Below are positions 37,412 through 64,000 of a DNA stretch of 64,000 bases, in pieces. The first letter of the stretch is position 1; every line of letters starts with the position of its first letter. The stretch spans positions 1,627,985 through 1,691,984 of the forward strand of contig OZ254083.1 in assembly GCA_965267555.1 (NCBI GenBank), written 5' to 3'. Both the position numbers and the translations under genes were made by a program. Below the pieces are notes generated by a model. That model did no database searches and was not told the origin of the DNA. It saw only the letters and a list, made by a program, of their open reading frames with translations. This DNA is from Cytophagales bacterium (GTDB lineage: Bacteria > Bacteroidota > Bacteroidia > Cytophagales > CCMP332).

Positions 37412-38317
37412 ATGAAGCGATTAGGTATTCTGGCCATTATCTCTGTAATGGCATTCTCCTGTGTGATGAATAAGAAAGTTATTTATTTGCAGGACGACGA
37501 CTATTACGGCAAAAACTTACCTTACAATCAGTGGGTCAATGAATATGAATCCAAGTACGAGGAATATTTGTTACAGCCCGGAGATATAATTTCCGTCCGC
37601 ATTGGTTCCTTGACACCTGCGGAATACAATTTTATCAAGGAGTACGAAAGACAATTGGGTCAGATTAGAAAACTCAATCAGTTTGAGCAGAATAATTTAA
37701 CCCAACAAAATGGTTCAGGCGCTCGTGGAGGAATGATGGGTGCAGGTGGAGGCGGAGACAATCCTTTTGATGTTGGATTGATACAATTTTTAGTTGATAA
37801 TTTTTTATCAGGATTTGAACTAGATGATGAAGGTAAACTCAATCTTCCCGAAATAGGTGAATTGATTTTATCCGGTAAATCAATAGAAGAGGCAGAATCC
37901 ATAATTCAGGACAGTCTGGAGGGATATTTTGAAACGCCCATAGTGAAGGTTGAACTCATGTCATTTCAGTTTACAATTTTTGGTGAGATTGCCAAAGAGG
38001 GCCGTTATACTTCCTATAGTTCGGAAACCAATATTTTTGATGCCATTGCTTTGGCAGAAAATCTGACTGAGTTTGCCGATAGAACCAGAATAAAATTAAT
38101 TAGGACGGAAGGCCGAAATGTAAAAACAGCCTATATAAATCTTTTGGATGAAAAACTTTTGGGATCAGAATTTTACTATTTGAGACCCGGAGATAAAATT
38201 ATTGTCCCTGCATTGAAAGCAAAAGTATGGCGGCAATATATAATTTCTGATGTAGCAAGAGCAGTGGCTACATTGAGTTCAGTAGCCACCTTAGTTGTTT
38301 TACTAACCACATTATAA
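37412..38317 (+). CDS. wza: Polysaccharide export lipoprotein (Wza-like)
   Basis: Lipobox AFSC, YLLQPGDII, GKLNLPEIG, FGEIAKEG, YYLRPGDKIIVP; ATG at 37412. Confidence 0.85.
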   Translation: MKRLGILAIISVMAFSCVMNKKVIYLQDDDYYGKNLPYNQWVNEYESKYEEYLLQPGDIISVRIGSLTPAEYNFIKEYERQLGQIRKLNQFEQNNLTQQNGSGARGGMMGAGGGGDNPFDVGLIQFLVDNFLSGFELDDEGKLNLPEIGELILSGKSIEEAESIIQDSLEGYFETPIVKVELMSFQFTIFGEIAKEGRYTSYSSETNIFDAIALAENLTEFADRTRIKLIRTEGRNVKTAYINLLDEKLLGSEFYYLRPGDKIIVPALKAKVWRQYIISDVARAVATLSSVATLVVLLTTL

Positions 38318-40723
38318 TTGAACGAATTTCAAAATACTGATCAGGAGGAAAAACAGGGTATTGGAATTATTCAGAAAGTACTTCTAAGTGCACTTTCTAA
38401 ATGGTACTGGATTGCTTTGTGCGTAATCGTATTTTTAACAGCTGCTTTTCTATACAACCGGTATACCACACCTATTTACCAGGTTTCCGCCTCTCTTGTA
38501 AAGGTAAAAGATCCTGAAAGTGAGAGTATTTTTTCAACCGGGAAATCTGCCGGTATTTTCCGTTCCGATGCAAGCGATGTGGAACGCGAATTAAGGATAA
38601 TAAAATCTCAAAAAAATATTGAAGAAGCCTTAAATGAATTGGATTTTCATTTTAGTGTTTACAGAGCCGGTGAAATTAAAACGACTGAAATCTATCCTCA
38701 TAATTATTTTTGGATTGAAATAGATTCAAATTCAACAAAGATTCCTTACGGAGAACTTTTTGAGTTTACCAATCTCAAGGATAATTCATCGTTTTCCTTA
38801 AATCCCTTAAGTGAACAAAGCGAATTTGCAGGTTTAGCGAAGAGCACTTTTACGTTTGGAAAGTGGTTTAATATCAATGGTTGTAAACTCAGAGTTCAAA
38901 AAATCACAAATAGCGACCTTTCTAAGACAAGTGATGATTTCCTTTTTAAATTCAACGATCCGGAACGAAACATTAATCTATACAACAATCAGCTAAGACT
39001 GCGAAGTGATAAAAATTCCAATAATATTTTTCACTTTGCTTTCAATTCTACTACGCCTCATAAGGACATGGCTTTTTTGGAAACCCTGATAAAGGTTGTC
39101 CGAAAAAACAACCTGAGCGAAAAAAACAGGGATGCTTCAAATTCTTTAAACTTTATTGAGGCTCAATTATCAAAACTAACTGACACTTTAAGTTATTTCA
39201 GAGGAAAAATTGATGAATACAAGATTAAAAATCTTGACTTCGGCAATGGATCAAATTTAATATTGGATAAGATCAACAGGCTTGAAGAGAGCAAATCGGA
39301 ATTGCTCCTTAGAAAAAATTATTATGAATACCTGGAAAATTATGTAAGACAAAAAAGAGATGAGGAAATATTTGCTCCGATGGTAATCGGTATTGATGAC
39401 CCCCTTCTCGATGCATTGGCATTAGAGTATATTGAAATTAAAAAAGAAGCGCGATTATTGAAAAATGAAAAAAACAAGGAAAATCCTTATCTCAATTATG
39501 AAGAAAATGTGGTACAAAGAATTGAAAAAAACATAATCGAAAACGTCACCAACCTTCAAGCAGACAATCAAAAAAAGCTTGTTGAAACCGAATCCAAAAT
39601 CAATTTTTATATATCCTCATTAAAAGGTTTACAGGAAGAGCAAAGGGATTTATACGAAATTCAGCAATTGTCTGAGCTAAATTCTCAACTGGTTGAACTC
39701 TTACTTCAAAAGAAAACAGAAATAAGCATCAGTAAATCGGCGAACAGTTCTGATTATGATATACTCGACAATCCAAAATATGTCGATGATCCTCTTATTC
39801 CGGATAAGGAAAGGAATCTATTAATTGCATTAGCTATTGGATTAGGGATTCCCTTTGGCTTTATTTATTTGAGGGAAGCCTTAAATAACAGAGTTAAATA
39901 TAAGGATGATCTTCTCAGCCTTACCGATATTCCACTCATTGGTGTTATAGGGCATAGTAAGCATTCCAATAATCTTGTGGTTACAGAAAAACCCAAATCA
40001 GTTGTATCTGAATCTTTTAGAGCTATCCGTTCAAATATTCATTTTCTTCAGGCAGGTGAAGAAGGCGGTGTTTTCCTTGTAACATCCAGTATTAGTGGTG
40101 AAGGAAAAACTTTTTGTTCAATCAATCTCGCACAAGTCTTTTCATTATCTGAAAAAAAAGTATTGCTCATAGGGGCAGATATGCGCAAACCCAAAATATA
40201 CGATGATTTTGGTATATCCAATGACTACGGATTGTCTTCATTTCTAAGCGGCGATATGAAACTGAATGAAGTTATCCAAAAAACCAGGTTTCCGAGTTTG
40301 GATATCATCAGTGCCGGAATAATTCCGCCAAACCCATCTGAATTGCTTATGAGCGATCGGATGCAAGAAGCCGTGAAAAATTTGAGGGAAGATTACGAGT
40401 ATATCATCATAGATTCTCCTCCTGTAGGCCTGGTGACAGATGCCAAAATCCTTATGGAAAGGGCAGATCAAACAATTTACATCGTAAGACAGAATGTTTC
40501 TCCCATTGAGGCGATTAAAAACCTTGACCAGGATTATCAGACAGGAAAAATAAATCATATTTCCATGATTCTCAATGATCTTTCGATGAAGAAAGGCGGC
40601 TATGGTTATGGCTATGGTTACGGATATGGTTACGGCTATGGCTATGGCTATGGTTATGGCTACTACGAAGACGACCACAAAAAGAAGAAAGGTGTTTTTA
40701 ACCGGCTGTTTGGAAAGGGCTGA
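38318..40723 (+). CDS. wzc: Polysaccharide co-polymerase / BY-kinase (Wzc-like)
   Basis: Two TM segments, SESFRAIRSN, Walker A TSSISGEGKT, GADMRKP, IIIDSPPV, C-terminal Tyr cluster; TTG start. Confidence 0.93.
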   Translation: MNEFQNTDQEEKQGIGIIQKVLLSALSKWYWIALCVIVFLTAAFLYNRYTTPIYQVSASLVKVKDPESESIFSTGKSAGIFRSDASDVERELRIIKSQKNIEEALNELDFHFSVYRAGEIKTTEIYPHNYFWIEIDSNSTKIPYGELFEFTNLKDNSSFSLNPLSEQSEFAGLAKSTFTFGKWFNINGCKLRVQKITNSDLSKTSDDFLFKFNDPERNINLYNNQLRLRSDKNSNNIFHFAFNSTTPHKDMAFLETLIKVVRKNNLSEKNRDASNSLNFIEAQLSKLTDTLSYFRGKIDEYKIKNLDFGNGSNLILDKINRLEESKSELLLRKNYYEYLENYVRQKRDEEIFAPMVIGIDDPLLDALALEYIEIKKEARLLKNEKNKENPYLNYEENVVQRIEKNIIENVTNLQADNQKKLVETESKINFYISSLKGLQEEQRDLYEIQQLSELNSQLVELLLQKKTEISISKSANSSDYDILDNPKYVDDPLIPDKERNLLIALAIGLGIPFGFIYLREALNNRVKYKDDLLSLTDIPLIGVIGHSKHSNNLVVTEKPKSVVSESFRAIRSNIHFLQAGEEGGVFLVTSSISGEGKTFCSINLAQVFSLSEKKVLLIGADMRKPKIYDDFGISNDYGLSSFLSGDMKLNEVIQKTRFPSLDIISAGIIPPNPSELLMSDRMQEAVKNLREDYEYIIIDSPPVGLVTDAKILMERADQTIYIVRQNVSPIEAIKNLDQDYQTGKINHISMILNDLSMKKGGYGYGYGYGYGYGYGYGYGYGYYEDDHKKKKGVFNRLFGKG
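40601..40666 (+). repeat. (TAYGGN)x10 + TACTAC encoding (YG)10-YY
   Basis: Read directly from the sequence; synonymous variation between units. Confidence 0.95.
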
Positions 40724-40731
40724 TTAGGATT

Positions 40732-41787
40732 ATGAAACTACTTCTCACCGGCGTTGCGGGCTTTATTGGATATCACACAGCTTTTAAATTACTTCAAGAG
40801 GGGCATGAAATTATCGGCCTCGATAATCTCAACACCTATTACGATGTGGATCTTAAGTTAAGGCGATTGGAATCACTGGGGATTAGTGCTTCTCAAATTT
40901 CCGATGATGAAGTTTTGCACAGTGATAATTTTAAAAATTTCAACTTTGTAAAAATTGACATTACAAATAAACATGAGCTGGTTGATCTCATCTCAAATAC
41001 CAATCCCGAAGTCATTATTCACTTAGCCGCACAGGCAGGGGTGCGTTATTCACTTGATCATCCTGAAAAATATCTCGAAAGTAATGTTCATGGATTTTTA
41101 AATCTCCTTGAAGCAATCAGGGAAAGGCCAATTAAGCATTTCATATTTGCTTCCAGTTCTTCTGTATACGGTCTTAATAAGGAAATACCGTTTAAAACGC
41201 ATCACCATACGGATCATCCCATTTCCCTTTATGCAGCCACTAAAAAAAGCAATGAAATGATGGCGCATACCTATAGCCACCTGTTTAATATTCCCATGAC
41301 AGGATTGAGGTTTTTTACGGTATACGGACCCTGGGGAAGACCTGATATGGCCATGTTCATTTTCACCAAAAACATATTGGAAGGAAAAGAAATTAAAGTC
41401 TATAATGAAGGGAAAATGAGCAGGGATTTTACGTATATCAGCGATATTGTTGATTCTATCAATAAGCTGATCGATAAAGTTCCGGAAGGCAAAAACTCAA
41501 ATGTCCAAAAGAATTTAGCGCCAAACGAAAGCACTGCTGCCTATCAATTATTTAATATTGGCTATAACGGCCCCACCAAATTGATGGACTTTATCAAAGC
41601 CATCGAAAAACATACGGGTAAAAAGGCAAAAATCAATTTTCAACCCTTACAGGCGGGTGATGTGGAAAATACGTTTGCCGATGTATCGGATTTATTTGAT
41701 TACATCGATTTCAAACCAAAAGTAGGGGTGGATGAAGGTGTTAAGAAATTTGTGGAATGGTACAAAGAATACTATTCCCGGATGTAA
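40732..41787 (+). CDS. NAD-dependent UDP-uronate 4-epimerase (GAE/CapI-like)
   Basis: TGVAGFIG, HLAAQAGVRYS, ASSSSVYG, YAATKK, RFFTVYGPWGRPDMA, QAGDV. Confidence 0.92.
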   Translation: MKLLLTGVAGFIGYHTAFKLLQEGHEIIGLDNLNTYYDVDLKLRRLESLGISASQISDDEVLHSDNFKNFNFVKIDITNKHELVDLISNTNPEVIIHLAAQAGVRYSLDHPEKYLESNVHGFLNLLEAIRERPIKHFIFASSSSVYGLNKEIPFKTHHHTDHPISLYAATKKSNEMMAHTYSHLFNIPMTGLRFFTVYGPWGRPDMAMFIFTKNILEGKEIKVYNEGKMSRDFTYISDIVDSINKLIDKVPEGKNSNVQKNLAPNESTAAYQLFNIGYNGPTKLMDFIKAIEKHTGKKAKINFQPLQAGDVENTFADVSDLFDYIDFKPKVGVDEGVKKFVEWYKEYYSRM

Positions 41788-42032
41788 TCCGGGATCTTCT
41801 GAAATTTTAGAGCTGGCAAATTAGTATAGAGTTTAATATTTAAAGTTTACCCCACAGTCATTATGGGCTTTAATCGCTTATCCAGAAAGGAATCGGAAGT
41901 TTAAAGTTGATTTGTTTATGGTTAATAGTTTTTAAGTCTACATATTCAACATTCTCTTATACCTATATCATATGACTATTCCCGGAAATAATCCGGGATC
42001 CCCTGAATTGTAAAACCAAGAAATTAGTATAG
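41771..42032. repeat. Two ~58-bp imperfect direct repeats (41771-41829, 41975-42032), each containing a TCCCGGA-N5-TCCGGGA palindrome
   Basis: ACTATTCCCGGA-tgtaa/aataa-TCCGGGATC...AAATTAGTATAG read in both copies. Confidence 0.85.
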
Positions 42033-42103
42033 TATTGAAGCATTGCATTCACAATACTTCAGTAGATAATCTGCGGATGTATGTTTCCCATTTTTAATAG
42101 GGA

Positions 42104-42238
42104 GTTGAATTGTTGAATCAATTAATTATTAGTGAGCAATTGCATTTTATTTCCAAGAATGAGCTCGATAATTTGAGACTAGAAATTGATAAAGTCTCCA
42201 ACAAATTGAACGCACTTCAAAAGTCTAGACTTCAATAA
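42104..42238 (+). pseudogene. 3' remnant of a four-helix-bundle protein gene
   Basis: VELLNQLIISEQLHFISKNELDNLRLEIDKVSNKLNALQKSRLQ*; in-frame TAA TAG at 42095-42100 and no start codon. Confidence 0.75.
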
Positions 42239-42261
42239 TTTTTTAGTCATTTCATTTAGTA

Positions 42262-42269
42262 TAATTTTG
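42262..42269 (+). promoter_or_regulatory. Internal -7 promoter motif TAATTTTG upstream of the wbpB-like gene
   Basis: Exact TAnnTTTG match 52 bp before the TTG start. Confidence 0.45.
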
Positions 42270-42321
42270 CTTAGTCGATCGAAACGATGAAACAAATCAA
42301 CATTTAAACATTTCAACATCA

Positions 42322-43287
42322 TTGAAAAACTTTGCACTCATCGGTGCTGCCGGCTACATAGCACCTCGTCATTTAAAAGCCATTAAAGAAACCGGAAATA
42401 AATTAAGCGCTGCGGTTGACAAACACGATTGTGTTGGCATCATGGATTCGTTTTTCCCAAATGCGGCTTTTTTCACGGAATTTGAACGATTTGACAGACA
42501 TTTGGAAAAGGAAAAAAGAGAACATCATCAGGCGGACTACATCAGTATTTGCACGCCGAATTATATGCACGATGCCCATATCCGCTTTGCCTTGCGATAT
42601 GGTGCGGATGCTATATGTGAAAAACCATTGGTACTGAATCCCTGGAACGTGGATCATTTAATGCAATTACAAAGGGAGTCAGACAAAAAAGTATACAATA
42701 TTTTGCAATTAAGGCTTCACCCAAGTGTCATTGCACTAAAGAAAAAAATTGAGTCTGAACCGAATAAAATCCATGACATCGATCTTACCTATATTACCTC
42801 TCGTGGCAACTGGTATTATGCTTCATGGAAAGGCGATATCAATAAATCAGGTGGAATTGCTACGAATATTGGAATTCATTTTTTTGACATGCTCATGTGG
42901 ATTTTCGGGCCGGTTCAAAGCCGCAAAATTCACTTGCACGAACACGACCGTGCAAGCGGTTTCCTGGTGTTGAAAAATGCAAGGGTCCGCTGGTTTTTAA
43001 GCATCAATGCCGATACATTACCGGATTCAGTTCGAAAAGAAGGACTGACAACATACAGATCACTTTCAATTGAAGGCGAAGAATTTGAATTTAGCAAAGG
43101 TTTCAACGATTTACACACCAGAAGCTATGAAAATATTGTTTCCGGAAAGGGATTTGAACTTTCAGAAGCGCGGCCATCAATCGAGGAAGTATATGAAATC
43201 CGTCAGGCTGCTAAAAGCCCTTTAAAAGAAGATTATCATCCTTTGGCAAAACTTCAACTTGCAAAACACCCCTTTAGCAAAGCCTGA
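42322..43287 (+). CDS. wbpB: Gfo/Idh/MocA oxidoreductase, WbpB/WlbA-like UDP-GlcNAcA 3-dehydrogenase
   Basis: FALIGAAGYIAPRHLKAI, ICTPNYMHDAH, CEKPLV, NILQLRLHP, YITSRGNWY, GGIATNIGIHFFDML. Confidence 0.9.
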   Translation: MKNFALIGAAGYIAPRHLKAIKETGNKLSAAVDKHDCVGIMDSFFPNAAFFTEFERFDRHLEKEKREHHQADYISICTPNYMHDAHIRFALRYGADAICEKPLVLNPWNVDHLMQLQRESDKKVYNILQLRLHPSVIALKKKIESEPNKIHDIDLTYITSRGNWYYASWKGDINKSGGIATNIGIHFFDMLMWIFGPVQSRKIHLHEHDRASGFLVLKNARVRWFLSINADTLPDSVRKEGLTTYRSLSIEGEEFEFSKGFNDLHTRSYENIVSGKGFELSEARPSIEEVYEIRQAAKSPLKEDYHPLAKLQLAKHPFSKA

Positions 43288-43289
43288 AA

Positions 43290-43805
43290 ATGTCAGAAAA
43301 AAAATGGCTTGTGTTCTATACCAAAAGCAGACATGAAAAAAAATGTCTGGATCTTTTATTACGCAGAGGATTCGAAGCCTGGCTGCCCATGGTAAAAGAA
43401 TTGCGTCAATGGTCTGACCGAAAGAAAAAAGTAGAGGCCCCTCTCTTCCGCTCTTACATATTTGTCTACCTAGAAGAACATCAGCTGAGGGAAGTACTTC
43501 AATTGCCGGGTATTTCCTGGAATATCCGCCACAATGATAAACCGGCTGTCTTACATGAAAAAGACAAAAAAATAATTGAACAGGTTTTAGACTCGGGTTA
43601 TGCAATAGAAGAAGAATCTGAAATAAGCGATTTTATAAGCGGACAAAAAGTACTGATCACCTCAGGCGCCTTAAAAAACAACCGAGCCATTGTAATTGGT
43701 AAGGATGATCCATATATTCTTATACAACTCGAGAGTATTGATAAAAATATACGCGTAAAGCTTCCATTTGATGTATTAAAACCCGATAATTCATTTAATG
43801 AGTAA
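43290..43805 (+). CDS. upxY: UpxY/RfaH-type NusG paralogue (antiterminator)
   Basis: WLVFYTKSRHEKK, RQWSDRKKKVEAPLFRSYIFV, KOW-like GQKVLITSGALKN. Confidence 0.9.
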   Translation: MSEKKWLVFYTKSRHEKKCLDLLLRRGFEAWLPMVKELRQWSDRKKKVEAPLFRSYIFVYLEEHQLREVLQLPGISWNIRHNDKPAVLHEKDKKIIEQVLDSGYAIEEESEISDFISGQKVLITSGALKNNRAIVIGKDDPYILIQLESIDKNIRVKLPFDVLKPDNSFNE

Positions 43806-43899
43806 AAAAACTACTCATATCTTGTTTTTTATAATTCGTAATTCGTAATTTGACATTTAATCAATGAAGCCATTGCGAAGTTGATTGTAATTGATTGAA

Positions 43900-44430
43900 T
43901 TGCTCGAGACACTTATTACATCTAAGACCAGAATAAAATTGCTGGTCAAATTCTTTTCAAATGCGCATAGCAAGGGATATCTGCGAAGTTTAGCCAATGA
44001 ATTTGGTGAATCCACAAATGCGATCCGTTTGGAACTCAATAATTTAAGCGAAGCCGGATTTTTAGTTTCCGAAGAAGCCGGAAGAACCATAGAATACCGA
44101 GCAAACAGCAAACACCCGCTTTTTCCCGAATTAAAAAACCTTGCCATGAAATATTTGGGTCTGGATAAGATAGCTGAAGAGGTGGTTCAAAAATTAGGGG
44201 AGGTAAAAGGCGCATTTATACACGGAGATTATACCAAAGGGATAGATTCTGGCTTGATTGATTTGGTTTTGATAGGCCAGGTAAATAGAGAAAATCTTCA
44301 TCGATTAGTTGTAAAAGCTGAAAAGATGATAAAAAGAAAAATCAGGGCCATGGTACTTTCGGAAGAGGAGTATATTGGCTTAAAGGATAAATTGGAAGCA
44401 GATCAGGCCATTTGGTTGTGGAGGGCATAG
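43900..44430 (+). CDS. Winged-helix (ArsR-like) regulator with C-terminal nucleotidyltransferase-like domain
   Basis: MLETLITSKTRIKLL, YLRSLANEFGESTNAIRLELN, YRAN..HPLFPEL, GDYTKGIDSGLIDLVLIG; TTG at 43900. Confidence 0.78.
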   Translation: MLETLITSKTRIKLLVKFFSNAHSKGYLRSLANEFGESTNAIRLELNNLSEAGFLVSEEAGRTIEYRANSKHPLFPELKNLAMKYLGLDKIAEEVVQKLGEVKGAFIHGDYTKGIDSGLIDLVLIGQVNRENLHRLVVKAEKMIKRKIRAMVLSEEEYIGLKDKLEADQAIWLWRA

Positions 44431-50870: not shown

Positions 50871-50890
50871 AACCAAATGACCAAAATAAA

Positions 50891-53803: not shown

Positions 53804-54452
53804 GGTTGTATTATTTGGAATATTGGATACTGCTGAACTGGCACATTTTTATTTAACACATGATTCTAAATATGAAGTTGTTGCTTTTACTGTAAACAAA
53901 GAATATTTAAAAGAGCAGAATTTCCGTGGTTTACCTGTAGTTGCCTTTGAAGATGTTCATATCGTTTATCCACCGGACCAGTTTTTGTTTTTTGCCCCTA
54001 TGACTGGAAGAAGAATGAATAAAAACAGAGAATCCGTATATAATGAAGCTAAATCCAAAGGATATGAATTTATTTCATATTTAAGTTCAAAAGCTACAGT
54101 TTTTCCAGAGGCAGAAATAGGTGAGAATTGTTTTATCCTTGAAGACAATACAATACAACCATTTACAAAAATTGGCAATAATGTTGTTTTATGGAGTGGT
54201 AATCATATTGGTCATCATGGAATAATAAATGATCATGTATTTTTTACCTCTCATGTTGTAATGTCAGGGCATTGTATAATTGAATCTTACTCTTTTTTCG
54301 GTGTGAATGCAACATTACGTGATTATCTTACCATAGGAAAAGGTTCGCTCATTGCAATGGGCGCTTCAGTTACAAAAAATACAGAGCCTTGGGGTGTATA
54401 TTTTGGAAGTCCGGCAAGAAAAGGTCCGAAATCGAGTATTGACACATACTAA
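53793..54452 (+). CDS. Hexapeptide-repeat sugar acyltransferase (NeuD/PglD/VioB-like)
   Basis: N-terminal Rossmann domain, IGENCFILE, IGNNVVLWSGNHIGHH, GSPAR. Confidence 0.88.
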   Translation: MKNKVVLFGILDTAELAHFYLTHDSKYEVVAFTVNKEYLKEQNFRGLPVVAFEDVHIVYPPDQFLFFAPMTGRRMNKNRESVYNEAKSKGYEFISYLSSKATVFPEAEIGENCFILEDNTIQPFTKIGNNVVLWSGNHIGHHGIINDHVFFTSHVVMSGHCIIESYSFFGVNATLRDYLTIGKGSLIAMGASVTKNTEPWGVYFGSPARKGPKSSIDTY

Positions 54453-57425: not shown

Positions 57426-58477
57426 TCAAATATGTTCATATCGGTTACCCGAAGAATTTTTCAACTTCCCTTCAAAGAAGCTTTTTTTCAATTAACCCTG
57501 AAATATATCATTTGGGAATTGGAAACGATTCCAATATAGATTATAAGGATAAATTTTTGTCGTCCATTTTTGAGGTATATTTAAAAACTTCCAAAGGTTT
57601 TAAATACAATGAGGTTAAAAAACGTATTAAGGATCATATTGATTTTCACTATTCAAAGGCAATAGAATCCAAAGCAAAGGCATTTGGCGTTTCGAGCGAA
57701 CATTTTTCATTTAGTTTTACCTATGACTGTCTCGATTTTGAAACAAAGTTTGATAGGTTAATTGAATTATTTGGAGATGATATTGTGGTCATCGCGATTA
57801 TCAGAGAGCAGATTGCTCTTATTAAATCGCTTTATAAAGAATCTGTAAGAGTCGGTTTCCCCGGAAGTTTTAATGATTTCTTATATGCTTTTTATAAGTA
57901 CCAAGACAGGAACTATTACTATGATCTTCGATACGATCTGGTTTATGATTATTTATCTAAAAAATTAAGTGCCAATCAGTTACATTTATTAACCTTTGAA
58001 TCCTATAGAGGGGAGAGAGAGAAACTTTTAAAAAATGACATGGGGGAATATTCAATTACCTCCGATCTTGCAAAGATCTTGAAAGTCAAAAATAAAGGAG
58101 ATGTTTTTCAACATTTCAATGCAGCTCTTAAAGACAAGGAAGTAAAAATTAAATCAGAATTAAACAAAACGACCAGACATGATCTTGGAAATAATTTGTA
58201 TTCATCTGCTGAATTGCACAGACAGGCTCAATATTTTATTCAAGAGTTGGAATTAAATGAAAAAGAAAATATACTATTTAGAGACGTGCTGGTTAAACGT
58301 AAATTATTAAAAGATGCTGCATCAATGGCAGAAGACAATAACGTAGATTTTGATTTGTTTAAATGTGACAAGGAATTGCTTAATAAGATCAGTACTTTTT
58401 ACATGAAGGGAAATCAAAAATTAATCGATTTATCAGGAATTAAATTGACTGATGAATATTTAATAGAATCATTTTGA
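57422..58477 (+). CDS. Divergent sulfotransferase-like P-loop protein
   Basis: HIGYPKNFSTSLQ, SSEHFS, IIREQIALIKSLY. Confidence 0.6.
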   Translation: MIKYVHIGYPKNFSTSLQRSFFSINPEIYHLGIGNDSNIDYKDKFLSSIFEVYLKTSKGFKYNEVKKRIKDHIDFHYSKAIESKAKAFGVSSEHFSFSFTYDCLDFETKFDRLIELFGDDIVVIAIIREQIALIKSLYKESVRVGFPGSFNDFLYAFYKYQDRNYYYDLRYDLVYDYLSKKLSANQLHLLTFESYRGEREKLLKNDMGEYSITSDLAKILKVKNKGDVFQHFNAALKDKEVKIKSELNKTTRHDLGNNLYSSAELHRQAQYFIQELELNEKENILFRDVLVKRKLLKDAASMAEDNNVDFDLFKCDKELLNKISTFYMKGNQKLIDLSGIKLTDEYLIESF

Positions 58478-58508
58478 TACTACTTCTTTCCGAGATTCTT
58501 TAATAAGG

Positions 58509-59522
58509 TTGACAAAAGATCAGTTTTTAAAAAAGTATTTGAAAACGGAGGTTAAAGAACTAGCCAACGATGTAAATAAAAAAAAGATTCTTTCAGTATG
58601 TGTTACAGCATACAACCATAATAACTTTATTCAAGATTGCTTAAGAAGTATAATTACCCAGAATTGTAATTATGATTTTGAAGTAATTGTAGGTGATGAT
58701 GAATCAAACGATGGATGTCGCGAAACCTGTATTTCCTTAGCAAAAAAACACAGAGATAAAATCAGACTTTTGCTGAATTCACGGAAAAATAATATTCACA
58801 TAAATAATAGACCGACAGGCCGATTTAATTTTATCTACAGCCTGATTTCAACAAATGGAAAATATGTCGCTCTTTGTGATGGTGATGACTTTTGGAGTGA
58901 TCCACATAAACTTAAAAAGCAAATTGATTTTTTGGAGGCAAATCCTGATGTTAATATCTGTGGTCACGTTACAGGTGTATTGGTAGAAGACGGAATTAGC
59001 TATAACCAGGAAAAACGTCCAAATCAGGATTTTGTTGGTCGAAAACTAAATCAAAAAGAAATAATTAGTTTGATAACAGTAAATGGACCGGCATTTCATA
59101 CTTCAAGCTTTGTCTTCAGGAAAAGCGCATTGACGGAATTTAATTTGCTTGCAAATTCAACAGTTGGAGATTATGCACTTTTAATTAAACTTACCGATAA
59201 AGGTTTTGCCTATGTTTTACCGGATGAAATGTCAGTTTACCGCAAAACAACACTAGGCTTTAGTCATGGCAATGAGAGGGATAATTTTCAGCACTCCAGT
59301 AATAAAGTAATTTTCTTTAAATCTATGAATCGATATACTTCTGGTAAATACAAAGAATTATTTAAACCAAGAATTATATCAGGCTACAAAGGATTAATGC
59401 GTTATAATATTGAAAGAAAAAACTATTTGCGATCTATTTTATATTTTCTGCAACTAATACGAATAGATAGAAGACTAATAAATAAATCTTATGAGTTAAA
59501 GGGTCTTTTTGCAAGTAAATAA
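58509..59522 (+). CDS. GT2 glycosyltransferase
   Basis: SVCVTAYNH, VGDDESNDG, YVALCDGDDFW, FHTSS, GDY, MSVYR. Confidence 0.92.
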   Translation: MTKDQFLKKYLKTEVKELANDVNKKKILSVCVTAYNHNNFIQDCLRSIITQNCNYDFEVIVGDDESNDGCRETCISLAKKHRDKIRLLLNSRKNNIHINNRPTGRFNFIYSLISTNGKYVALCDGDDFWSDPHKLKKQIDFLEANPDVNICGHVTGVLVEDGISYNQEKRPNQDFVGRKLNQKEIISLITVNGPAFHTSSFVFRKSALTEFNLLANSTVGDYALLIKLTDKGFAYVLPDEMSVYRKTTLGFSHGNERDNFQHSSNKVIFFKSMNRYTSGKYKELFKPRIISGYKGLMRYNIERKNYLRSILYFLQLIRIDRRLINKSYELKGLFASK

Positions 59523-60546
59523 AACGATATTTTCATGTAATTATAACATCCATTCTCAGCCCGAATGGTTCGATTCGTATAAGAAAAATTTCCAAATAGA
59601 ATCTAAAGATGTAATTGACCTTGGAATGGATAATTTACCATTCCAGTTTGAAATTAGAAATAAGAGGAGGTTTAGATTTATCAAAGAAAAACACCTTTAT
59701 CCATTAGGACATGGCCCTAATGATTTTGTGTTGATTCCATTAATACAAAATGATCCCCTGGAGTTGGCAGAAAACTGTGTTGACCAATTATTGAAGATCA
59801 AAAATAAATGGGATCACTTTCATTTATATTATGTCCCGGAATCTTCCAATGGCTGGAAAGAATTGAAAGCAGCATTTGAAAAATCCGGCTTTAGAGCCGA
59901 AATTAGAAGACACAGGCATTTCTACCGTATAGATACCACCTCAAACTGGGATGACTATTACAATGATTTTCTACACAAAAGCCTCCGGGACGTAAGAGGA
60001 AGATTTAACAGACTGAAAAAAGCAAATCTGAGTTACACTGTTCATGAAACTTTAAATGATATATCGAAACATTTAGATTCTCTTTTAGAAATTTATGACC
60101 AAAGAAGACAAAGTACAGGCCAAAAAAATGCATTCGCGAGAGAGGCGCATAGAAAAATGTTGGAGCAAGTAATAAAATGTTATGAAAAAAAAGGCTGGGT
60201 GAAATTGTCTTATTTACTTGGTAGTGATGATAAAATATGGGCTTATCAGTTGGACTTTATTAAGGATGGTATTCAATATCATTATACACCCGCTTTCGAC
60301 GAAGAATACAAATTTTATTCTCCCAGTAAAATTCTTCTTTACGAAACCTTAAAAAAAGCATTTCAAGATAAATCTATTAGAGAATTTAATTTCATGCGAG
60401 GGGAGTCACCTTATAAAACCCAATATGCAAGACAAAAAGAAGACTACATTTTTATTGATGTTATAAACATGTATTCAGCAACTAATAAGAAGATGTACTT
60501 TCTTAAAAAATTATCACGATTGAAAAACAAACTTTTTTCAAATTAG
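59509..60546 (+). CDS. GNAT (Acetyltransf_6/BcsL/Fem-like) acyltransferase
   Basis: WDDYYNDF.HKS.RD..GRFNRL, YYTP-like HYTPAFDEEYKFYSPSKIL, FNFMRGESPYK. Confidence 0.75.
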   Translation: MQVNKTIFSCNYNIHSQPEWFDSYKKNFQIESKDVIDLGMDNLPFQFEIRNKRRFRFIKEKHLYPLGHGPNDFVLIPLIQNDPLELAENCVDQLLKIKNKWDHFHLYYVPESSNGWKELKAAFEKSGFRAEIRRHRHFYRIDTTSNWDDYYNDFLHKSLRDVRGRFNRLKKANLSYTVHETLNDISKHLDSLLEIYDQRRQSTGQKNAFAREAHRKMLEQVIKCYEKKGWVKLSYLLGSDDKIWAYQLDFIKDGIQYHYTPAFDEEYKFYSPSKILLYETLKKAFQDKSIREFNFMRGESPYKTQYARQKEDYIFIDVINMYSATNKKMYFLKKLSRLKNKLFSN

Positions 60547-60549
60547 ACT

Positions 60550-62361
60550 ATGTGTGGTATACTCGGATATCATCACAAATCACAAAATATATCAGAAGAT
60601 AGCTATTCTAAATCACTTGATTCTCTTATGCATCGGGGTCCGGATGAGAGTGGTACTTATAATAAAGGGAATTTGTGGCTTGGTCATAGGCGACTTTCTA
60701 TAATTGATCTTGAACATGGTCATCAGCCCATGGCAAGTTCTGATGGAAGATATATAATTGTATTTAATGGTGAGATTTACAATTATAAAGAGGTGGCTAG
60801 AAAACTCTGTATGAAAGATTTGCAGACTACTTCAGATACTGAAGTTTTACTATATGCGTATGCGCAAAAAAAGGAAGACTGCTTGAAATATTTGAGAGGT
60901 ATGTTCGCTTTTTCAGTATTCGACACCCATGACAATACTTTATTTATTGCTAGGGATCATTTCGGAATAAAACCACTCGTATATTATTTGTCTAATGAAG
61001 TCTTTGCCTTTTCTTCAGAGATTTCGGCTCTAAAAAAACTACCAGACTGCAATACTTCGATCGATTTTCAAAGCTTGGATATTTATTTAAGACTTAATTA
61101 CATTCCTGCACCAAATACAGCATACAAAGAAATCCGGAAATTAAAACCCGGTCATTATCTTAAATTCAACCTTAATGATAGAAGCCATAAAGAAATCGCA
61201 TATTACCGATTTGATTTTAAACCAGATTATTCTAGTAAAAAAGAGGAGTGCTTTGAAGAATTTGAGTCTATTTTTCAAGATTCTGTAATTCATCATACTT
61301 ATGCAGATGTGCCTTTTGGTGCATTTCTCTCAGGAGGAATTGACTCAACTTCAATTACGATGGAAATGAGTAAATATCTGGGTAAAGGAGTTAAGACTTT
61401 TACAATTGACTTCGAAGGTGATTACTCAGAATTACAATATGCTAAAGAGGCCGCAGAAAGGTTTGGTCTTGACCACGAATATCATTTAGTCAAACCGGAA
61501 GCTATTAATATTTTGGATGATATAATTGAACATTCCGGAGAGCCATTTGGTGATAGCGCTGTGCTTCCTACATTTTACTTGAGCAAAGTAGCATCAAATA
61601 GCGTGAAAATGATTTTGTCAGGCGATGGAGCGGATGAATTTTTAGCCGGGTATAATTCATATTTCAAATGGCTTAAAAGATTAAATGGTGCGGATCTAAG
61701 TTACAAACAGCTCCTAATAAGAAAGTTATCCGTGCTGAAAAACCGAAAGAATATTGAAAACAGAACGCTGGATAAATGGTTGAAATATACACCTGGAATT
61801 CAGAATAAAATTAGAAAATCATTATGGAGAGATGCATATCGAGATTTCTTTATTCCTGAAATTGAAGATTTTCTAAGGGTATTTTCAGAAACAAAATCTT
61901 TAAATCCAATTCAACAAGCACAGACTTTGGATATAAAATTTTTACTTCAGGGAAATATGTTGCCCAAAGTAGATATAGCTTCGATGATGAATTCTCTTGA
62001 AGTAAGAACACCATTTGTGGATATTGAAATTGCCAACTTTATATCACGCACCCCAGCCGAATACTATTTCCAAAGTAATGGTAAGGAATTTGAAGGTAAG
62101 ATTCCTTTAAGAAAACTGCTGTCTGACGTTTTCCCTGAGAATTTTCTTAACCGTCCTAAACATGGGTTTACAGTACCCCTAACCAAATGGTTTAATAATG
62201 ATTCTGAATTTGTCAATTTAATTCAACATTATTTTTACTCTGAAAGTAGTTCATTAACAACTCTATTTGAGAAAGTGACACTTAATGAAATCTTAAATGA
62301 GCAAAAGAAAGATAAAATTTGGTCCCTTTTGATTCTTGGAAAATGGCTTGACAATGAATAA
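60550..62361 (+). CDS. asnB: Asparagine-synthetase-like glutamine amidotransferase
   Basis: MCGI (Ntn Cys), HRGPD, GHRRLSIIDL, FNGEIYN, FLSGGIDS, SGDGADE, KVDIASMMNSLEVRTPF. Confidence 0.95.
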   Translation: MCGILGYHHKSQNISEDSYSKSLDSLMHRGPDESGTYNKGNLWLGHRRLSIIDLEHGHQPMASSDGRYIIVFNGEIYNYKEVARKLCMKDLQTTSDTEVLLYAYAQKKEDCLKYLRGMFAFSVFDTHDNTLFIARDHFGIKPLVYYLSNEVFAFSSEISALKKLPDCNTSIDFQSLDIYLRLNYIPAPNTAYKEIRKLKPGHYLKFNLNDRSHKEIAYYRFDFKPDYSSKKEECFEEFESIFQDSVIHHTYADVPFGAFLSGGIDSTSITMEMSKYLGKGVKTFTIDFEGDYSELQYAKEAAERFGLDHEYHLVKPEAINILDDIIEHSGEPFGDSAVLPTFYLSKVASNSVKMILSGDGADEFLAGYNSYFKWLKRLNGADLSYKQLLIRKLSVLKNRKNIENRTLDKWLKYTPGIQNKIRKSLWRDAYRDFFIPEIEDFLRVFSETKSLNPIQQAQTLDIKFLLQGNMLPKVDIASMMNSLEVRTPFVDIEIANFISRTPAEYYFQSNGKEFEGKIPLRKLLSDVFPENFLNRPKHGFTVPLTKWFNNDSEFVNLIQHYFYSESSSLTTLFEKVTLNEILNEQKKDKIWSLLILGKWLDNE

Positions 62362-63331
62362 GGTGCAAGTCAACTTAATTATTTCTATAGACACAGAATG
62401 TGACAAAGGCCCGGGATGGGAAATTCCCAAACCTATGGGCTTTAGGAATATTACTGAGGGTATTCCGAATACTCTAAAACCTCTATTTGATCAGTTTAAT
62501 ATTAAACCCACCTATCTTTTGAGCCCTGAGGTAATTAAATCTCAGGAATGTGTTAATATTTTTAAGGAGCAGTCAAATGCAGAATTGGGAACCCATCTTC
62601 ATGGAGAATTTATTGGCCCTGCAGAGGACCTCAATGCAAATCGAACCTCTACGCCTCAATTGAAATACGACCCGGAAACCGAAAAAGCAAAGCTCGAAAA
62701 TTTAACGAATCTCTTTATAGATACATATGGTTATGCTCCCTTGTCCTTCCGAGCCGGCAGATGGGGTATGAGCCCTCAAACATTACACTTTCTTCAGGAT
62801 TTGGGTTACCGGGTTGACTCTTCGGTTTGTTCCTTTCGAACGCATTATTTTGATGATGATTATGTAAATTTCTGGGGAGCCCCTTTGCAACCCTATCATC
62901 CATCTATGCATGATTTTAGAAAAAAGGGCAAAATGAAAATTCTGGAAGTACCGGCCACGCTTGGTAACCCACATTTAATGAAATGGCCTCGTTTTATACT
63001 CAGAAATCTAGATGATAAAAGCAGGGTTCATAAAAAGATACTTGGAAAATTGGGCTACAGTTCCAAAATATCCTGGTTCAGACCCTGGAAAAGTTCAGCA
63101 GAGGAAATGAAAATTTTAGCGGATCAATATATCGCTCATTTTGCAAATAATGGCAAACCGGCCCTTTTAAATATGATGTTTCACAGTAATGAAATATTGC
63201 AGGGAACAAGTCCATATGCGCAAACAGAAAACGAATTGACTGCCTATATTGAAAGTATTAAAAAGCTATTTGATCATTTACAGAAAACCTATGACCTTGA
63301 GGGTATAGGATTATCCGATGTATCGGCTTAA
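62354..63331 (+). CDS. Polysaccharide deacetylase-like (CE4/WalW-like) protein
   Basis: SIDTECD, ELGTHLH, SFRAGRW, YRVDSSV, MMFHSNE; ATG at 62354. Confidence 0.75.
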   Translation: MNKVQVNLIISIDTECDKGPGWEIPKPMGFRNITEGIPNTLKPLFDQFNIKPTYLLSPEVIKSQECVNIFKEQSNAELGTHLHGEFIGPAEDLNANRTSTPQLKYDPETEKAKLENLTNLFIDTYGYAPLSFRAGRWGMSPQTLHFLQDLGYRVDSSVCSFRTHYFDDDYVNFWGAPLQPYHPSMHDFRKKGKMKILEVPATLGNPHLMKWPRFILRNLDDKSRVHKKILGKLGYSSKISWFRPWKSSAEEMKILADQYIAHFANNGKPALLNMMFHSNEILQGTSPYAQTENELTAYIESIKKLFDHLQKTYDLEGIGLSDVSA

Positions 63332-63884
63332 AAAGCTTTTAAGAAAATTCAAATTTGGCATACACAGGGAAGTATTTTATGAATACGATTTAAGTCGGGT
63401 ACTCGAAATTCCACAGGTCAAAAATATTCCTCAAATTAAAATACTGGATAAGCAAAATATTGAAGATATATTTAAAATATGGAATGTGGATAGGGGACAA
63501 ATCCGGAAAAGAATGGAATCATCGGACTCGGTCTGTTTCTTGTCTTATCTGAACTCCGAACCTGTGGCCTATCACTGGTTACAAGTTGCCGGAAATCACT
63601 ATGTTCAGAAAGGAGACTTTAGCTTTACAATTCGGCAAGGTAAAACCGCCATGATCTATCATACACGAGTTGATCGTACTTTTCATGGAAAAGGAATTAA
63701 CACCTTTGTCATGTGGCATATAATCAATTACTGCAGGGAAAAAGGACTCGATAAACTTTGGATTTACACCGCTTCTGATAATCACGCTCAAAGAAAGAGT
63801 TTGGATAAGTTGGGCTTTGAATTTATAAAATCTGTATCAAGCATTTTTGTTGGAAAGAAATACTTTGTCTTGACCAAGTTTTGA
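63318..63884 (+). CDS. GNAT-family N-acetyltransferase
   Basis: IYHTRV...FHGKGI acetyl-CoA motif, N.AQRKSLDKLGF. Confidence 0.8.
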   Translation: MYRLKKLLRKFKFGIHREVFYEYDLSRVLEIPQVKNIPQIKILDKQNIEDIFKIWNVDRGQIRKRMESSDSVCFLSYLNSEPVAYHWLQVAGNHYVQKGDFSFTIRQGKTAMIYHTRVDRTFHGKGINTFVMWHIINYCREKGLDKLWIYTASDNHAQRKSLDKLGFEFIKSVSSIFVGKKYFVLTKF

Positions 63885-63898
63885 AAAGAAGAATCACA

Positions 63899-64000
63899 AT
63901 GATTTTTGATCAATTCGGGCACCCTAATCAACCTTTTTGGCATCAGTTGTATTTGCGTTTGATTCAATTGGCTGATTTTGAGATCAAAGTTTTTACCAAA
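63899..64000 (+). CDS. 5' end of the next gene, truncated by the window edge (possibly a glycosyltransferase)
   Basis: ATG at 63899, open to the end: MIFDQFGHPNQPFWHQLYLRLIQLADFEIKVFTK. Confidence 0.5.
   Translation, partial: MIFDQFGHPNQPFWHQLYLRLIQLADFEIKVFTK

Follow-up and report, generated by a model that had tools for sequence, protein, structure and literature searches.

A 48-gene candidate surface-polysaccharide locus in a marine member of the Bacteroidota, predicted to encode a sulfated, N-acylated and amidated glycan

What kind of glycan is made by a long run of co-oriented genes that seems to hold many tailoring enzymes and a single glycosyltransferase? The window (the whole 64,000-nucleotide stretch analysed) carries such a run up to its end, and we assigned families by Pfam and NCBIfam scans of the window and the next 35 kb. 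The locus comprises 48 genes on a single strand over 51.2 kb (genome 1665390-1716548), from window position 37406 to 24.5 kb beyond the window end, which bears out an earlier note that had seen a surface-glycan locus running past the window. The note counted 26 co-oriented genes; in the ORF map all lie on the + strand, with 25 complete in 37406-64000 and the 26th present only as its 5' end. Gaps in this part are -26 to +31 nt, with exceptions of 534, 85 and 254 nt, and all 48 locus ORFs have intact frames with mostly overlapping or near-zero spacing. The claim of only one complete glycosyltransferase did not survive: the next 24.5 kb adds seven GT4 enzymes, two GT2 enzymes and a phosphoglycosyltransferase, alongside three sulfotransferases, an NTP_transferase and a second DegT protein. 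The single-glycosyltransferase appearance arose because the window edge truncates the locus; with ~10 GT4/GT2 enzymes in the whole, the supposed dominance of tailoring enzymes falls away too. We think it probable that a marine, T9SS-bearing member of the Bacteroidota has here its main variable locus for cell-surface polysaccharide (O-antigen or capsule type). Its product is very probably a sulfated, N-acylated, amidated glycan, all chemical steps being read from gene content, motifs, synteny and distribution.

The 5' end holds export and regulatory genes. First come wza for outer-membrane polysaccharide export (37406-38317; Poly_export 45.2 bits) and wzc for a PCP-2a tyrosine autokinase (38318-40723; Wzz, GNVR, AAA_31; TIGR01007 162 bits, cut-off 108), both 85-94% identical in congeners, and an SDR NDP-sugar epimerase/dehydratase (40732-41787; Epimerase 195.7 bits) whose top NCBIfam matches, GalE, RmlB and TviC, each fall under their own cut-off. 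The 534-nt gap before the operon (41788-42321) contains a repeated short element and an 18-nt inverted repeat (41900-41917/42290-42307); 3 of 200 shuffles gave a repeat of equal quality. The congeners showed no inversion of this segment, and neither this nor the inverted-repeat search gave evidence for an invertible promoter. A stretch within the gap (~42107-42229) is conserved in genomes G002 and G003, and an intact IVP gene occupies the place of the gap in contig L004; read by eye, the stretch may be a remnant of a 23S-rRNA-IVP-like gene. Beyond it lie a WbpB-like GFO/MocA oxidoreductase (42322-43287; GFO_IDH_MocA 59.8 bits), a UpxY antiterminator (43290-43805; NF033644 108.1 bits, cut-off 100) and a protein of 179 aa that weakly matches winged-helix (PaaX/ArsR) families (43891-44430). 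Across this conserved module (42322-44430), identity is 82-96% to congeners and 49-66% to the sister genus. The ABC transporter genes wzm (44685-45512; ABC2_membrane 66.7 bits) and wzt (47952-49235; ABC_tran 79.9 bits; weak Wzt_C, E 0.0014) enclose an MBOAT/DltB-like O-acyltransferase (45535-46980; MBOAT 94.1 bits) and a 319-aa signal-anchored partner (46981-47940). The pair, with a partner of ~318 aa, also occurs in contigs L004, L006 and L008. No Wzx flippase was found in the 48-gene locus.

Two PAPS-type sulfotransferases, ST1 (49260-50030; Sulfotransfer_1 53.4 bits) and ST2 (50031-50870; 67.8 bits), stand in tandem in the same frame with one TAA between them (stop codon checked), and carry the motifs KAGTT and RxPVxRAxS. 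Together with the three downstream, the locus has five Sulfotransfer_1 proteins, all of which keep both PAPS-binding motifs (K-x-G-T-T and R/K-x-P-x-x-R-x-x-S). A cysQ-cysC-cysD-cysN operon (genome 2067260-2070852), recognised by an APS kinase match next to homologues of CysD, CysN and CysQ, is found 350 kb away. Sulfation is well supported in silico because five sulfotransferases with intact PAPS motifs coexist with a genomic PAPS operon, and the locus glycan is very probably sulfated. Most of the earlier tailoring calls held; the exceptions were the SGNH assignment of the MBOAT partner, for which we found a weak GDSL_2 match (E 0.077) and constant adjacency to MBOAT, and the third of three sulfotransferase-like genes, a 351-aa protein (57422-58477) without a family match in the HMM scan. 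Profile comparison of this protein with the locus sulfotransferases gave a probability of 3.6%, which did not confirm the call.

Polysaccharide clusters with sulfotransferases have been described in Synechocystis (PMC8205485) and Cobetia (PMC11766843). The capsular polysaccharide of Cobetia marina KMM 1449 is proven by structure to be sulfated, with a simple disaccharide repeat, and that system resembles ours in being marine and ABC-transporter-dependent, with sulfotransferase genes and PAPS synthesis; however, Cobetia is a gammaproteobacterium with its PAPS genes inside the cluster, rather than 350 kb off in a Bacteroidota genome (PMC11766843). The present locus differs further in its five sulfotransferases, ~10 glycosyltransferases, and predicted N-acyl amino-sugar and aminoacyl-uronamide cassettes. 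The xss cluster for synechan in Synechocystis sp. PCC 6803, shown by genetics to make a sulfated exopolysaccharide, likewise combines sulfotransferases (two), glycosyltransferases (eight) and polymerisation/export genes in one large cluster, but it relies on Wzx/Wzy, lies on a plasmid and is under the control of XssQ/R/S (PMC8205485), whereas our locus has Wzm/Wzt without Wzx, an antiterminator of the UpxY family and a much larger set of tailoring enzymes.

An amino-sugar cassette follows the sulfotransferases. It comprises a DegT 4-aminotransferase-like protein (50891-51976; DegT 287 bits; best NCBIfam DesI-type, 253 bits), WbqC (51969-52679; 208.7 bits; no significant fold match in structure comparison), an M29 aminopeptidase-family protein (52679-53803; Peptidase_M29 135 bits) with catalytic motifs kept when aligned to AmpS, a NeuD/PglB/VioB-type LbH (hexapeptide) acyltransferase (53793-54452; TIGR03570 159.8 bits, cut-off 160.8) and a GH130-like protein (54453-55385; GH130 weak, E 0.0026; NF052550 1.7e-11). 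Further on lies a GT2 glycosyltransferase (58509-59522; Glycos_transf_2 74.2 bits). The set DegT-WbqC-M29-LbH-GH130-like-GT2 recurs with sulfotransferases in the Bacteroidota contigs L004, L006 and L008, in one of which cysD-cysN-cysQ adjoins wza. In six of seven contexts a sulfotransferase immediately precedes DegT-WbqC, and between WbqC and the GH130-like gene the content varies among acyl-forming enzymes. Also present are a PhyH Fe/2OG dioxygenase (56592-57425; PhyH 69.3 bits) and a 407-aa methyltransferase of NDP-sugar C-methyltransferase architecture (55382-56605; Methyltransf_23 70.5 bits, Methyltransf_14), whose top PDB match is D-mycarose 3-C-methyltransferase, with TcaB9 also matched near full length (E 1.7e-5). 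The methyltransferases and MBOAT make methylation and O-acylation of the glycan plausible.

A second, Wbp/Vim-like block contains a FemAB-like GNAT (59509-60546; Acetyltransf_6 74.3 bits; no TIGR03019 match in NCBIfam), an AsnB amidotransferase (60550-62361; Asn_synthase 248.8 bits; best NCBIfam TIGR03108, 448.7 bits, under cut-off), a CE4-like deacetylase (62336-63331), a small GNAT (63318-63884; GNAT family) and a GT4 (134.3 bits) that starts at 63881 and ends at genome 1692992. The deacetylase call of the earlier note is borne out by predicted fold rather than by the HMM scan, which gave no match: the AlphaFold model (pLDDT 95.6) best matches CE4-type deacetylases (3qbu, E 5.8e-11), as well as ArnD and PuuE, and polysaccharide deacetylase and NodB-domain protein are the names given to some of its homologues. 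The AsnB protein, with its best match to the WbpS/WbqG-type family, makes amidation plausible, and the FemAB-like GNAT and CE4-like deacetylase do the same for aminoacylation.

From these genes a single pathway can be proposed. At the 3' end, a small phosphoglycosyltransferase of PglC/WcfS type (Bac_transf 201.7 bits), the only initiating one in the locus, would start the chain on undecaprenyl phosphate with a 4-amino sugar from the adjoining PseC/ArnB-like aminotransferase and GNAT. The ~10 GT4/GT2 enzymes would extend it in the cytoplasm, where the five PAPS-dependent sulfotransferases, supplied by the cysQ-cysC-cysD-cysN operon, may sulfate it. One special sugar may be an N-acylated 4-amino-6-deoxyhexose, made by a downstream LegB-type dehydratase (LegB equivalog 497.7 bits, cut-off 475), the nucleotidyltransferase, DegT, WbqC, M29 and the LbH acyltransferase; this sugar is tied to the recurrent cassette headed by a sulfotransferase, and it may be a substrate of the C-methyltransferase and PhyH hydroxylase as well. 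The other would be a Wbp/Vim-type N-aminoacyl (di)amino-uronamide, built by GFO/MocA, the CE4-like deacetylase, the FemAB-like GNAT and AsnB. Wzm/Wzt would export the finished chain, and a WaaL/Wzy-family membrane protein (downstream; Wzy_C 52.8 bits) with Wza/Wzc would place it on or beyond the outer membrane. MBOAT and its partner could O-acylate it in the periplasm, and a side sugar is probably added by a GtrB-like GT2 and a 439-aa multi-pass membrane protein.

Flanked by an aconitase and an SDR gene, the locus keeps a fixed site in each of the three congeners and in two genomes of the sister genus, spanning 39-54 kb. Congeners share mostly 74-96% identity at the ends and mostly 50-80% in the middle. 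The AT-richness noted by eye from ~49 kb is real: GC is 33.6% for 49260-64000 against 37.5% for the genome, within the lowest 0.2% of same-size windows. A fixed site with ends that are conserved and a middle that is variable and AT-rich is the pattern of a serotype-like glycan locus. Bacteroides capsular polysaccharide loci are UpxY-regulated and carry a WcfR/WcfS-type aminotransferase with a small phosphoglycosyltransferase. Here, UpxY lies near the 5' end, a pair of DegT and ~200-aa Bac_transf proteins at the 3' end, and one long co-oriented operon has variable content; unlike in Bacteroides, there is no Wzx/Wzy pair, and Wza/Wzc, Wzm/Wzt and sulfotransferases are present. No UpxZ was recognisable at the locus.

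The presence side by side of Wza/Wzc, Wzm/Wzt and a protein of the Wzy_C family leaves room for more than one product. At least two pathways could have been joined (an ABC-transporter-dependent, WaaL-ligated O-antigen; a capsule or EPS exported by Wza/Wzc; a side-chain module of Gtr type), with the tailoring enzymes split among several simpler glycans. We regard this as a serious though less likely reading. Consistent with it are the presence of a second DegT aminotransferase and a second set of SDR enzymes, the 534-nt gap that sets wza-wzc-SDR off from the remainder, and an embedded 709-aa T9SS-cargo gene (41% GC; gaps of 113 and 66 nt around it); moreover, the DegT-WbqC cassette is tied to Wzx, not an ABC transporter, in related contigs. 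However, the locus has one initiating phosphoglycosyltransferase and one UpxY, with UpxY, Wza and Wzy_C each single copy in the genome; every gene is co-oriented and closely spaced; genomes G001 and G003 keep the overall order; and in Roseivirga the same mix (Wzm/Wzt, sulfotransferases, a Vim-like triad, GT4s and Wzy_C) occurs in one unit.

A doubtful alternative to the single polysaccharide locus is a counterpart of Porphyromonas A-LPS, an anionic (sulfated) LPS with an aminoacyl-uronamide linking sugar for T9SS sortase cargo C-termini, the 709-aa protein being one such cargo. In Porphyromonas gingivalis and Tannerella forsythia the Wbp/Vim pathway leads to the T9SS linking sugar, and the order FemAB-like GNAT, AsnB, CE4-like, GNAT, GT4 plus GFO/MocA here fits VimA/WbpS/VimE/VimF/WbpB (PMC7468200). 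Here too the organism bears a T9SS, and the product type predicted in both cases is an N-aminoacyl, amidated diamino-uronic acid; the VimA-, VimE- and WbpB-like genes are single copy in this genome, which has 113 T9SS C-terminal-domain genes; a cargo gene lies inside the locus in G001 (87% identical), G003 (67%), G002 and G006 (29%); and cargo genes flank related Roseivirga and Winogradskyella loci. Yet the likeness is one of enzyme families, the genes here sit in one large variable locus, and equivalents of WbpA, WbpE and WbpD were not identified. The CE4-like protein is patchily distributed: 6 of the 41 related genomes have it, it was absent from all 33 genomes of other families in the order, and it is therefore not a general T9SS component there. 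At one cargo gene per 31 kb, one is expected by chance in 51 kb about 80% of the time. The GNAT/CE4-like/GT4 triad recurs not only in Roseivirga and Winogradskyella (L116, L117) but also in a KSB1 genome (L118), from outside the Bacteroidota; Proteobacteria that use other sortases are reported to have it too (PMC7468200). A decaying or silent horizontally acquired island whose glycan is not made is very improbable, given 48 intact, tightly coupled ORFs, a site constant across the genus and sister genus, where the modules for regulation and initiation are conserved, and retained catalytic motifs in the sulfotransferases and M29, despite the low-GC centre and the patchy M29 cassette (2 of 41 relatives).

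We found no characterised locus in the literature whose overall gene set was the same. The earlier view that the combination matches no described pathway nevertheless goes too far: the GNAT-AsnB-CE4-GT4 block matches the Wbp/Vim scheme (PMC7468200), and the DegT-WbqC-acetyltransferase-AsnB set recalls an O-antigen module of E. coli O121 and Shigella dysenteriae 7. The sugars of that module are Qui4N and GalNAcAN, and it is not known to have M29, sulfotransferase, GH130-like or C-methyltransferase genes. Like our locus, it groups a VioA-like 4-aminotransferase with a protein of the WbqC family, an acetyltransferase and an AsnB-like amidotransferase in a single glycan locus. The O121/type 7 glycan bears an N-acetylglycine substituent (PMC7685785), and its uronamide needs WbqG (PMC7468200). 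Amide-linked amino acids and uronamides occur in O-antigens.

The window corresponds to genome positions 1627985-1691984; on its + strand, positions 37406-64000 carry 25 complete ORFs together with the opening 40 codons of a 26th. The co-oriented 26-gene set of the earlier note is therefore confirmed, as is its view that the locus continues: an ORF map annotated with Pfam and NCBIfam shows same-strand genes running on unbroken for 24.5 kb past the window. The chromosome is complete (3.5 Mb), and the whole locus, from window position 37406 to genome position 1716548, comprises 48 intact genes in 51.2 kb. It is preceded by a housekeeping aconitase gene (35138-37402) and ends at an adh_short SDR gene and opposite-strand genes that follow a phosphoglycosyltransferase gene. 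Within the window most neighbouring genes overlap or lie no more than 31 nt apart; the exceptions (534, 85 and 254 nt) are all in the 5' part. Immediately upstream of the aconitase gene, on the - strand, is a single ORF of 2907 aa (26179-34902).

Within the window, Pfam and NCBIfam matches confirmed genes for Wza, Wzc, an SDR epimerase/dehydratase, a GFO/MocA oxidoreductase, UpxY, Wzm, an MBOAT protein (top match DltB), Wzt, two Sulfotransfer_1 proteins, a DegT aminotransferase, WbqC, a Peptidase_M29 protein, a NeuD/PglB/VioB-type hexapeptide transferase, a 407-aa methyltransferase, a PhyH dioxygenase, a GT2, an Acetyltransf_6 FemAB-like GNAT, an AsnB amidotransferase and a small GNAT. Past the window follow, in order, two GT4s, a sulfotransferase, a GT4, a 709-aa T9SS cargo protein, a sulfotransferase, a GT4, a GT2, a sulfotransferase, a Wzy_C (WaaL/Wzy family) membrane protein and a GT4; then a LegB-equivalog 4,6-dehydratase, a sugar-1-phosphate nucleotidyltransferase, a second SDR, a GT4, a PaaK-like adenylating enzyme and a 439-aa multi-pass membrane protein; and finally a GtrB/ArnC-like GT2 with a C-terminal membrane segment, a methyltransferase, a GT4, a GNAT, a PseC/ArnB-like DegT and a 196-aa Bac_transf phosphoglycosyltransferase. 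The full locus has ten Leloir-type glycosyltransferases and one initiating enzyme. The earlier impression of a single glycosyltransferase against 14 tailoring enzymes arose because the window edge cut the locus, and the next 35 kb of sequence rule out a genuine scarcity of glycosyltransferases.

A glycan locus of 39-54 kb lies between the aconitase and the downstream SDR in all three congeners (G001, G002 and G003) and in two sister-genus genomes. Using tblastn with the 48 locus proteins as queries, we found within-genus identities of 75-96% for a 5' module (wza, wzc, SDR, GFO/MocA, UpxY and a 179-aa protein) and 74-89% for a 3' module (GNAT, DegT and phosphoglycosyltransferase). In the interior, G001 and G003 keep the gene order at identities of mostly 50-80%, and G002 has most of the genes replaced. 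Conserved ends with a variable interior match the usual pattern of a serotype-determining locus. The most variable part is the low-GC segment: the AT-richness seen by eye from ~49 kb was borne out by a GC content of 33.6% at 49260-64000 compared to a genome mean of 37.5%, below that of 99.8% of equal-size windows. Variant loci at one site in three congeners provide a natural comparison set for relating gene content to structure. The G001 aconitase is 95% identical to that of this genome, and G001 has the same locus with UpxY and the T9SS cargo gene.

The UpxY antiterminator scored 108.1 bits against an NCBIfam cut-off of 100. Directly after it, where Bacteroides has UpxZ, is the gene for the 179-aa protein (43891-44430). 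Its product gave only weak winged-helix (PaaX/ArsR-like) matches, yet no other gene of the locus is as well conserved (identity 94-96% within the genus and 61-65% to the sister genus). Ahead of the GFO/MocA-UpxY operon is the 534-nt gap (41788-42321), which contains a short direct repeat and an 18-nt inverted repeat flanking 372 nt; the quality of the inverted repeat was reached by 3 of 200 shuffles. We found no clear sign of an invertible promoter here: the inverted repeat is somewhat unusual, yet no flipped copy was seen among the congeners. G002 and G003 share a stretch of ~123 nt in the gap that, to the eye, resembles the 3' end left over from a 23S-rRNA-IVP-like gene; a G003-like contig (L004) has that gene intact.

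Wzm (ABC2_membrane, 66.7 bits) and Wzt (ABC_tran, 79.9 bits) occur with one phosphoglycosyltransferase (Bac_transf, 201.7 bits) and a WaaL-family protein (Wzy_C, 52.8 bits), and none of the 48 locus products matches the Polysacc_synt/MOP models for a Wzx flippase. By gene content, this is a predicted ABC-transporter-dependent O-antigen/capsule assembly locus. For the C-terminal carbohydrate-binding domain (Wzt_C), by which Wzt would read a chain terminator, the match is weak (19 bits, cut-off 30.4; E 0.0014). In the pathway that we envisage, the small phosphoglycosyltransferase would start a chain that is assembled and sulfated in the cytoplasm; as Wzx is absent, Wzm/Wzt would carry the chain out, after which it would pass to the WaaL/Wzy-family protein and/or Wza/Wzc. 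A side sugar may come from the GtrB-like GT2 and the 439-aa membrane protein, and the MBOAT pair would carry out periplasmic O-acylation. The MBOAT partner (46981-47940) had been called an SGNH protein, for which significant HMM support was not obtained; it has a GDSL_2 match with E 0.077 and a signal anchor, and adjoins MBOAT in four loci. We regard it as possible, if rather unlikely, that the locus products are instead divided between two or more glycans.

We classed proteins as sulfotransferases where they had a Pfam PF00685 or PF13469 score above the curated cut-off and both PAPS motifs. The tandem window genes ST1 (49260-50030) and ST2 (50031-50870) scored 53.4 and 67.8 bits with Sulfotransfer_1 (cut-off 22), and the downstream ST3, ST4 and ST5 scored 63.0, 57.3 and 44.6 bits. 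The 5'-phosphosulfate-binding loop (K-x-G-T-T) and the 3'-phosphate-binding motif (R/K-x-P-x-x-R-x-x-S) are kept in all five, which are thus family members and predicted PAPS-dependent enzymes. ST1 and ST2 are 40% identical and share one frame, with a lone TAA between them. No signal peptide or membrane segment was found in any of the five, so sulfation would be cytoplasmic. An APS kinase gene with adjoining CysD, CysN and CysQ homologues is found elsewhere (cysQ-cysC-cysD-cysN operon; genome 2067260-2070852). A third sulfotransferase-like protein had been proposed in the window (57422-58477; 351 aa), which we rejected: it has no HMM or PDB match, an hhalign profile probability of 3.6%, and only the motif PKNFSTS. 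There are 12 PF00685 matches in the genome, of which five are in the locus. Each of the 8 genomes of the family has two to eight copies; among 33 genomes of the order's other families, only 8 have any. The G002 locus has none of the ST1-ST5 types but carries another Sulfotransfer_1 gene.

The Wbp/Vim pathway produces 2-N-seryl- or 2-N-glycyl-3-N-acetyl-(gluc/mann)uronic acid, or its amide, using WbpA/B/E/D, the CE4 deacetylase VimE, the FemAB-like VimA and the AsnB-type WbpS, with VimF as the associated GT4 (PMC7468200). The locus contains a contiguous FemAB-like GNAT, AsnB, CE4-like protein, small GNAT and GT4 (the block starts at window position 59509), and a GFO/MocA gene heads the operon. 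The VimA/VimE/VimF-type adjacency is seen at the level of family, fold and gene order only, with AsnB and a GNAT inserted before the GT4. The FemAB-like GNAT scored 74.3 bits with Acetyltransf_6 and did not match TIGR03019. The top match of AsnB was TIGR03108 (WbpS/WbqG-type; 448.7 bits, below the cut-off of 816.9), and it scored 421 with the generic asparagine synthase model TIGR01536, above the cut-off of 267. GFO/MocA is WbpB-like at family level only and is the sole candidate recognised for the Wbp core (WbpA, WbpB, WbpE, WbpD); there is no UDP-GlcNAc 6-dehydrogenase within the locus.

The CE4-like protein (62336-63331) has no significant HMM match. A model built from a 28-sequence alignment (pLDDT 95.6) had as its best PDB matches the CE4-type deacetylases HP0310 (E 5.8e-11), an M. 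smegmatis enzyme, ArnD and PuuE, so the earlier deacetylase call holds at the level of fold. Some homologues (47-48% identity) are named polysaccharide deacetylases or NodB-domain proteins. The triad of GNAT, CE4-like protein and GT4 recurs in Roseivirga, where sulfotransferases, Wzm/Wzt and Wzy_C accompany it, in Winogradskyella, where it adjoins cysC-cysD-cysN-cysQ, and in a KSB1 genome with AsnB. This supports a predicted role for the block in uronic acid aminoacylation and amidation. The earlier note did not recognise the gene combination as a described pathway, which goes too far for this block: it is of a described type (PMC7468200).

The block might alternatively serve T9SS cargo anchoring. 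The 709-aa cargo gene lies inside the locus, 4.3-6.4 kb past the window end (genome 1696276-1698405; L002:5292-7421, L002 being the stretch past the window), and is at the same position in G001 (87%), G003 (67%), and G002 and G006 (29%). Its GC content (41%) is above that of its neighbours. The protein has a signal peptide, a type A C-terminal sorting domain and, by eye, repeated Cys-containing modules; the sorting domain is the only domain recognisable, with no enzymatic domain among the matches. However, the genome has 113 cargo genes, or one per 31 kb, so such adjacency is expected by chance, and we discounted it as evidence for anchoring. The Wbp/Vim-like genes are single-copy in this genome, and just 6 of 41 relatives have the CE4-like gene, a distribution that argues against a general role in cargo attachment. 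Anchoring is therefore doubtful. Four tandem genes of ~715-726 aa, each with a terminal T9SS sorting domain, lie at genome ~1333783-1341157, within the most AT-rich 50-kb stretch of the chromosome (~34.9% GC, 1.34-1.38 Mb).

Uronic acid aminoacylation and amidation would account for one part of the locus; its most interesting component is a conserved, uncharacterised amino-sugar cassette. For the M29 protein, G003 encodes an orthologue with 61% identity, and a few Bacteroidota contigs encode relatives with 38-48%; identity to the large generic M29 family does not exceed about 37%. The protein was found in only 2 of 41 related genomes, and the matches listed in a species-wide M29 profile search of genome contigs were all generic aminopeptidases at ~33% identity. 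The order is the same in each context examined: DegT, WbqC, M29 and LbH transferase, followed by a GH130-like protein of 310 aa, one or two unknown genes and GT2. Nearby are sulfotransferases and the MBOAT pair, with either Wzx or Wzm/Wzt, and in one Cyclobacteriaceae genome cysD-cysN-cysQ is immediately upstream of wza. In 6 of 7 contexts a sulfotransferase (Sulfotransfer_1 or Sulfotransfer_4 type) immediately precedes DegT-WbqC. DegT, WbqC and GH130-like genes are also constant in the cassettes of G001 and two further related genomes (G005 and G006), and the genes between them vary: PhyH, FemAB-like GNAT, methyltransferase and GNAT in G001; FabG-like SDR, AMP-binding adenylating enzyme and LbH transferase in G006; methyltransferase, two SDRs and metallophosphoesterase in G005. 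Constant genes with changing genes between them point to a single 4-amino sugar scaffold with a lineage-specific N-substituent.

A 2-acetamido-4-keto-6-deoxy precursor linked to GDP or UDP is suggested by the LegB equivalog (genome 1704906-1705907; TIGR04180 score 497.7 bits, cut-off 475) together with the nucleotidyltransferase. As there is no NeuB/LegI synthase within the locus, a nonulosonic acid is not predicted. The top NCBIfam match of DegT is dTDP-4-keto-6-deoxyglucose aminotransferase. The 407-aa methyltransferase has a C-methyltransferase C-terminal domain, and its closest PDB entries are NDP-sugar 3-C-methyltransferases (D-mycarose 3-C-methyltransferase, TcaB9; E 1.7e-5, near full length), making a branched-chain sugar possible. 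The M29 protein is a predicted member of the M29 aminopeptidases (AmpS/PepS/AmpT): PF02073 scored 135.2 bits over the C-terminal two thirds, a profile match to AmpS had E 4.4e-21, and PDGEvF, GEfA and DEk..H align with the AmpS catalytic residues. E214, E280, H307, H326 and D328 are invariant.

WbqC (PF08889) scored 208.7 bits against a cut-off of 21.3. A sequence search of the PDB gave no match, and literature searches returned no functional study of WbqC/O121. Its model is confident (pLDDT 92.8) but without a significant PDB match. The best matches, all non-significant, were the bacillithiol enzyme BshC (E 0.049) and class I tyrosyl-tRNA synthetases (E 0.2-1), which offer at most a lead towards an ATP-dependent ligase. 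One speculative reading, which we consider improbable, is that the cassette (sulfotransferase, DegT, WbqC, variable acyl genes, GH130-like, GT2) represents an as yet undescribed way of making N-aminoacylated 4-amino-6-deoxy sugars that carry sulfate. WbqC would then act as an ATP-dependent ligase and couple a carboxylate (in this case an amino acid) to the amine of the sugar, a role suggested solely by its weak fold likeness to cysteine-adding BshC and class I aminoacyl-tRNA synthetases. The aminoacyl or peptidyl group might be trimmed or edited by the M29 peptidase-fold enzyme and capped by the LbH transferase, and the GH130-like protein might be a non-Leloir glycosyl-transferring enzyme.

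Sulfated polysaccharides have been much studied in animals and algae and, among bacteria, chiefly in cyanobacteria; to our knowledge, only a few proteobacterial clusters are tied to a proven sulfated structure. Marine Bacteroidota are known degraders of algal sulfated glycans, and a locus in a complete genome, with at least one congener that seems to stem from an algal culture, is a practical start for asking if they also make such glycans. Many Bacteroidota glycan loci contain WbqC, the sugar-locus M29 clade and the GH130-like partner, and the locus is equally a start for assigning functions to these proteins. Polysaccharide clusters with sulfotransferases and a proven product are described in Synechocystis (PMC8205485) and Cobetia marina (PMC11766843); the literature searched gave no description of a Bacteroidota sulfated glycan or its genes. 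Amide-linked amino acids are found in E. coli O antigens (PMC7685785), and WbqG/WbpS-type amidotransferases form uronamides (PMC7468200).

Related genes occur elsewhere on the chromosome. An MBOAT paralogue at genome 810270-811726 matches in two coordinate-overlapping pieces (69% over 281 aa and 53% over 231 aa), which suggests a frameshifted or split copy. A second set of AsnB (34% identical), Wzm (37%) and Wzt (54%) at genome 3002074-3005690 marks another ABC-transporter glycan locus, and more DegT and sulfotransferase genes are grouped at genome 1.27-1.29 Mb.
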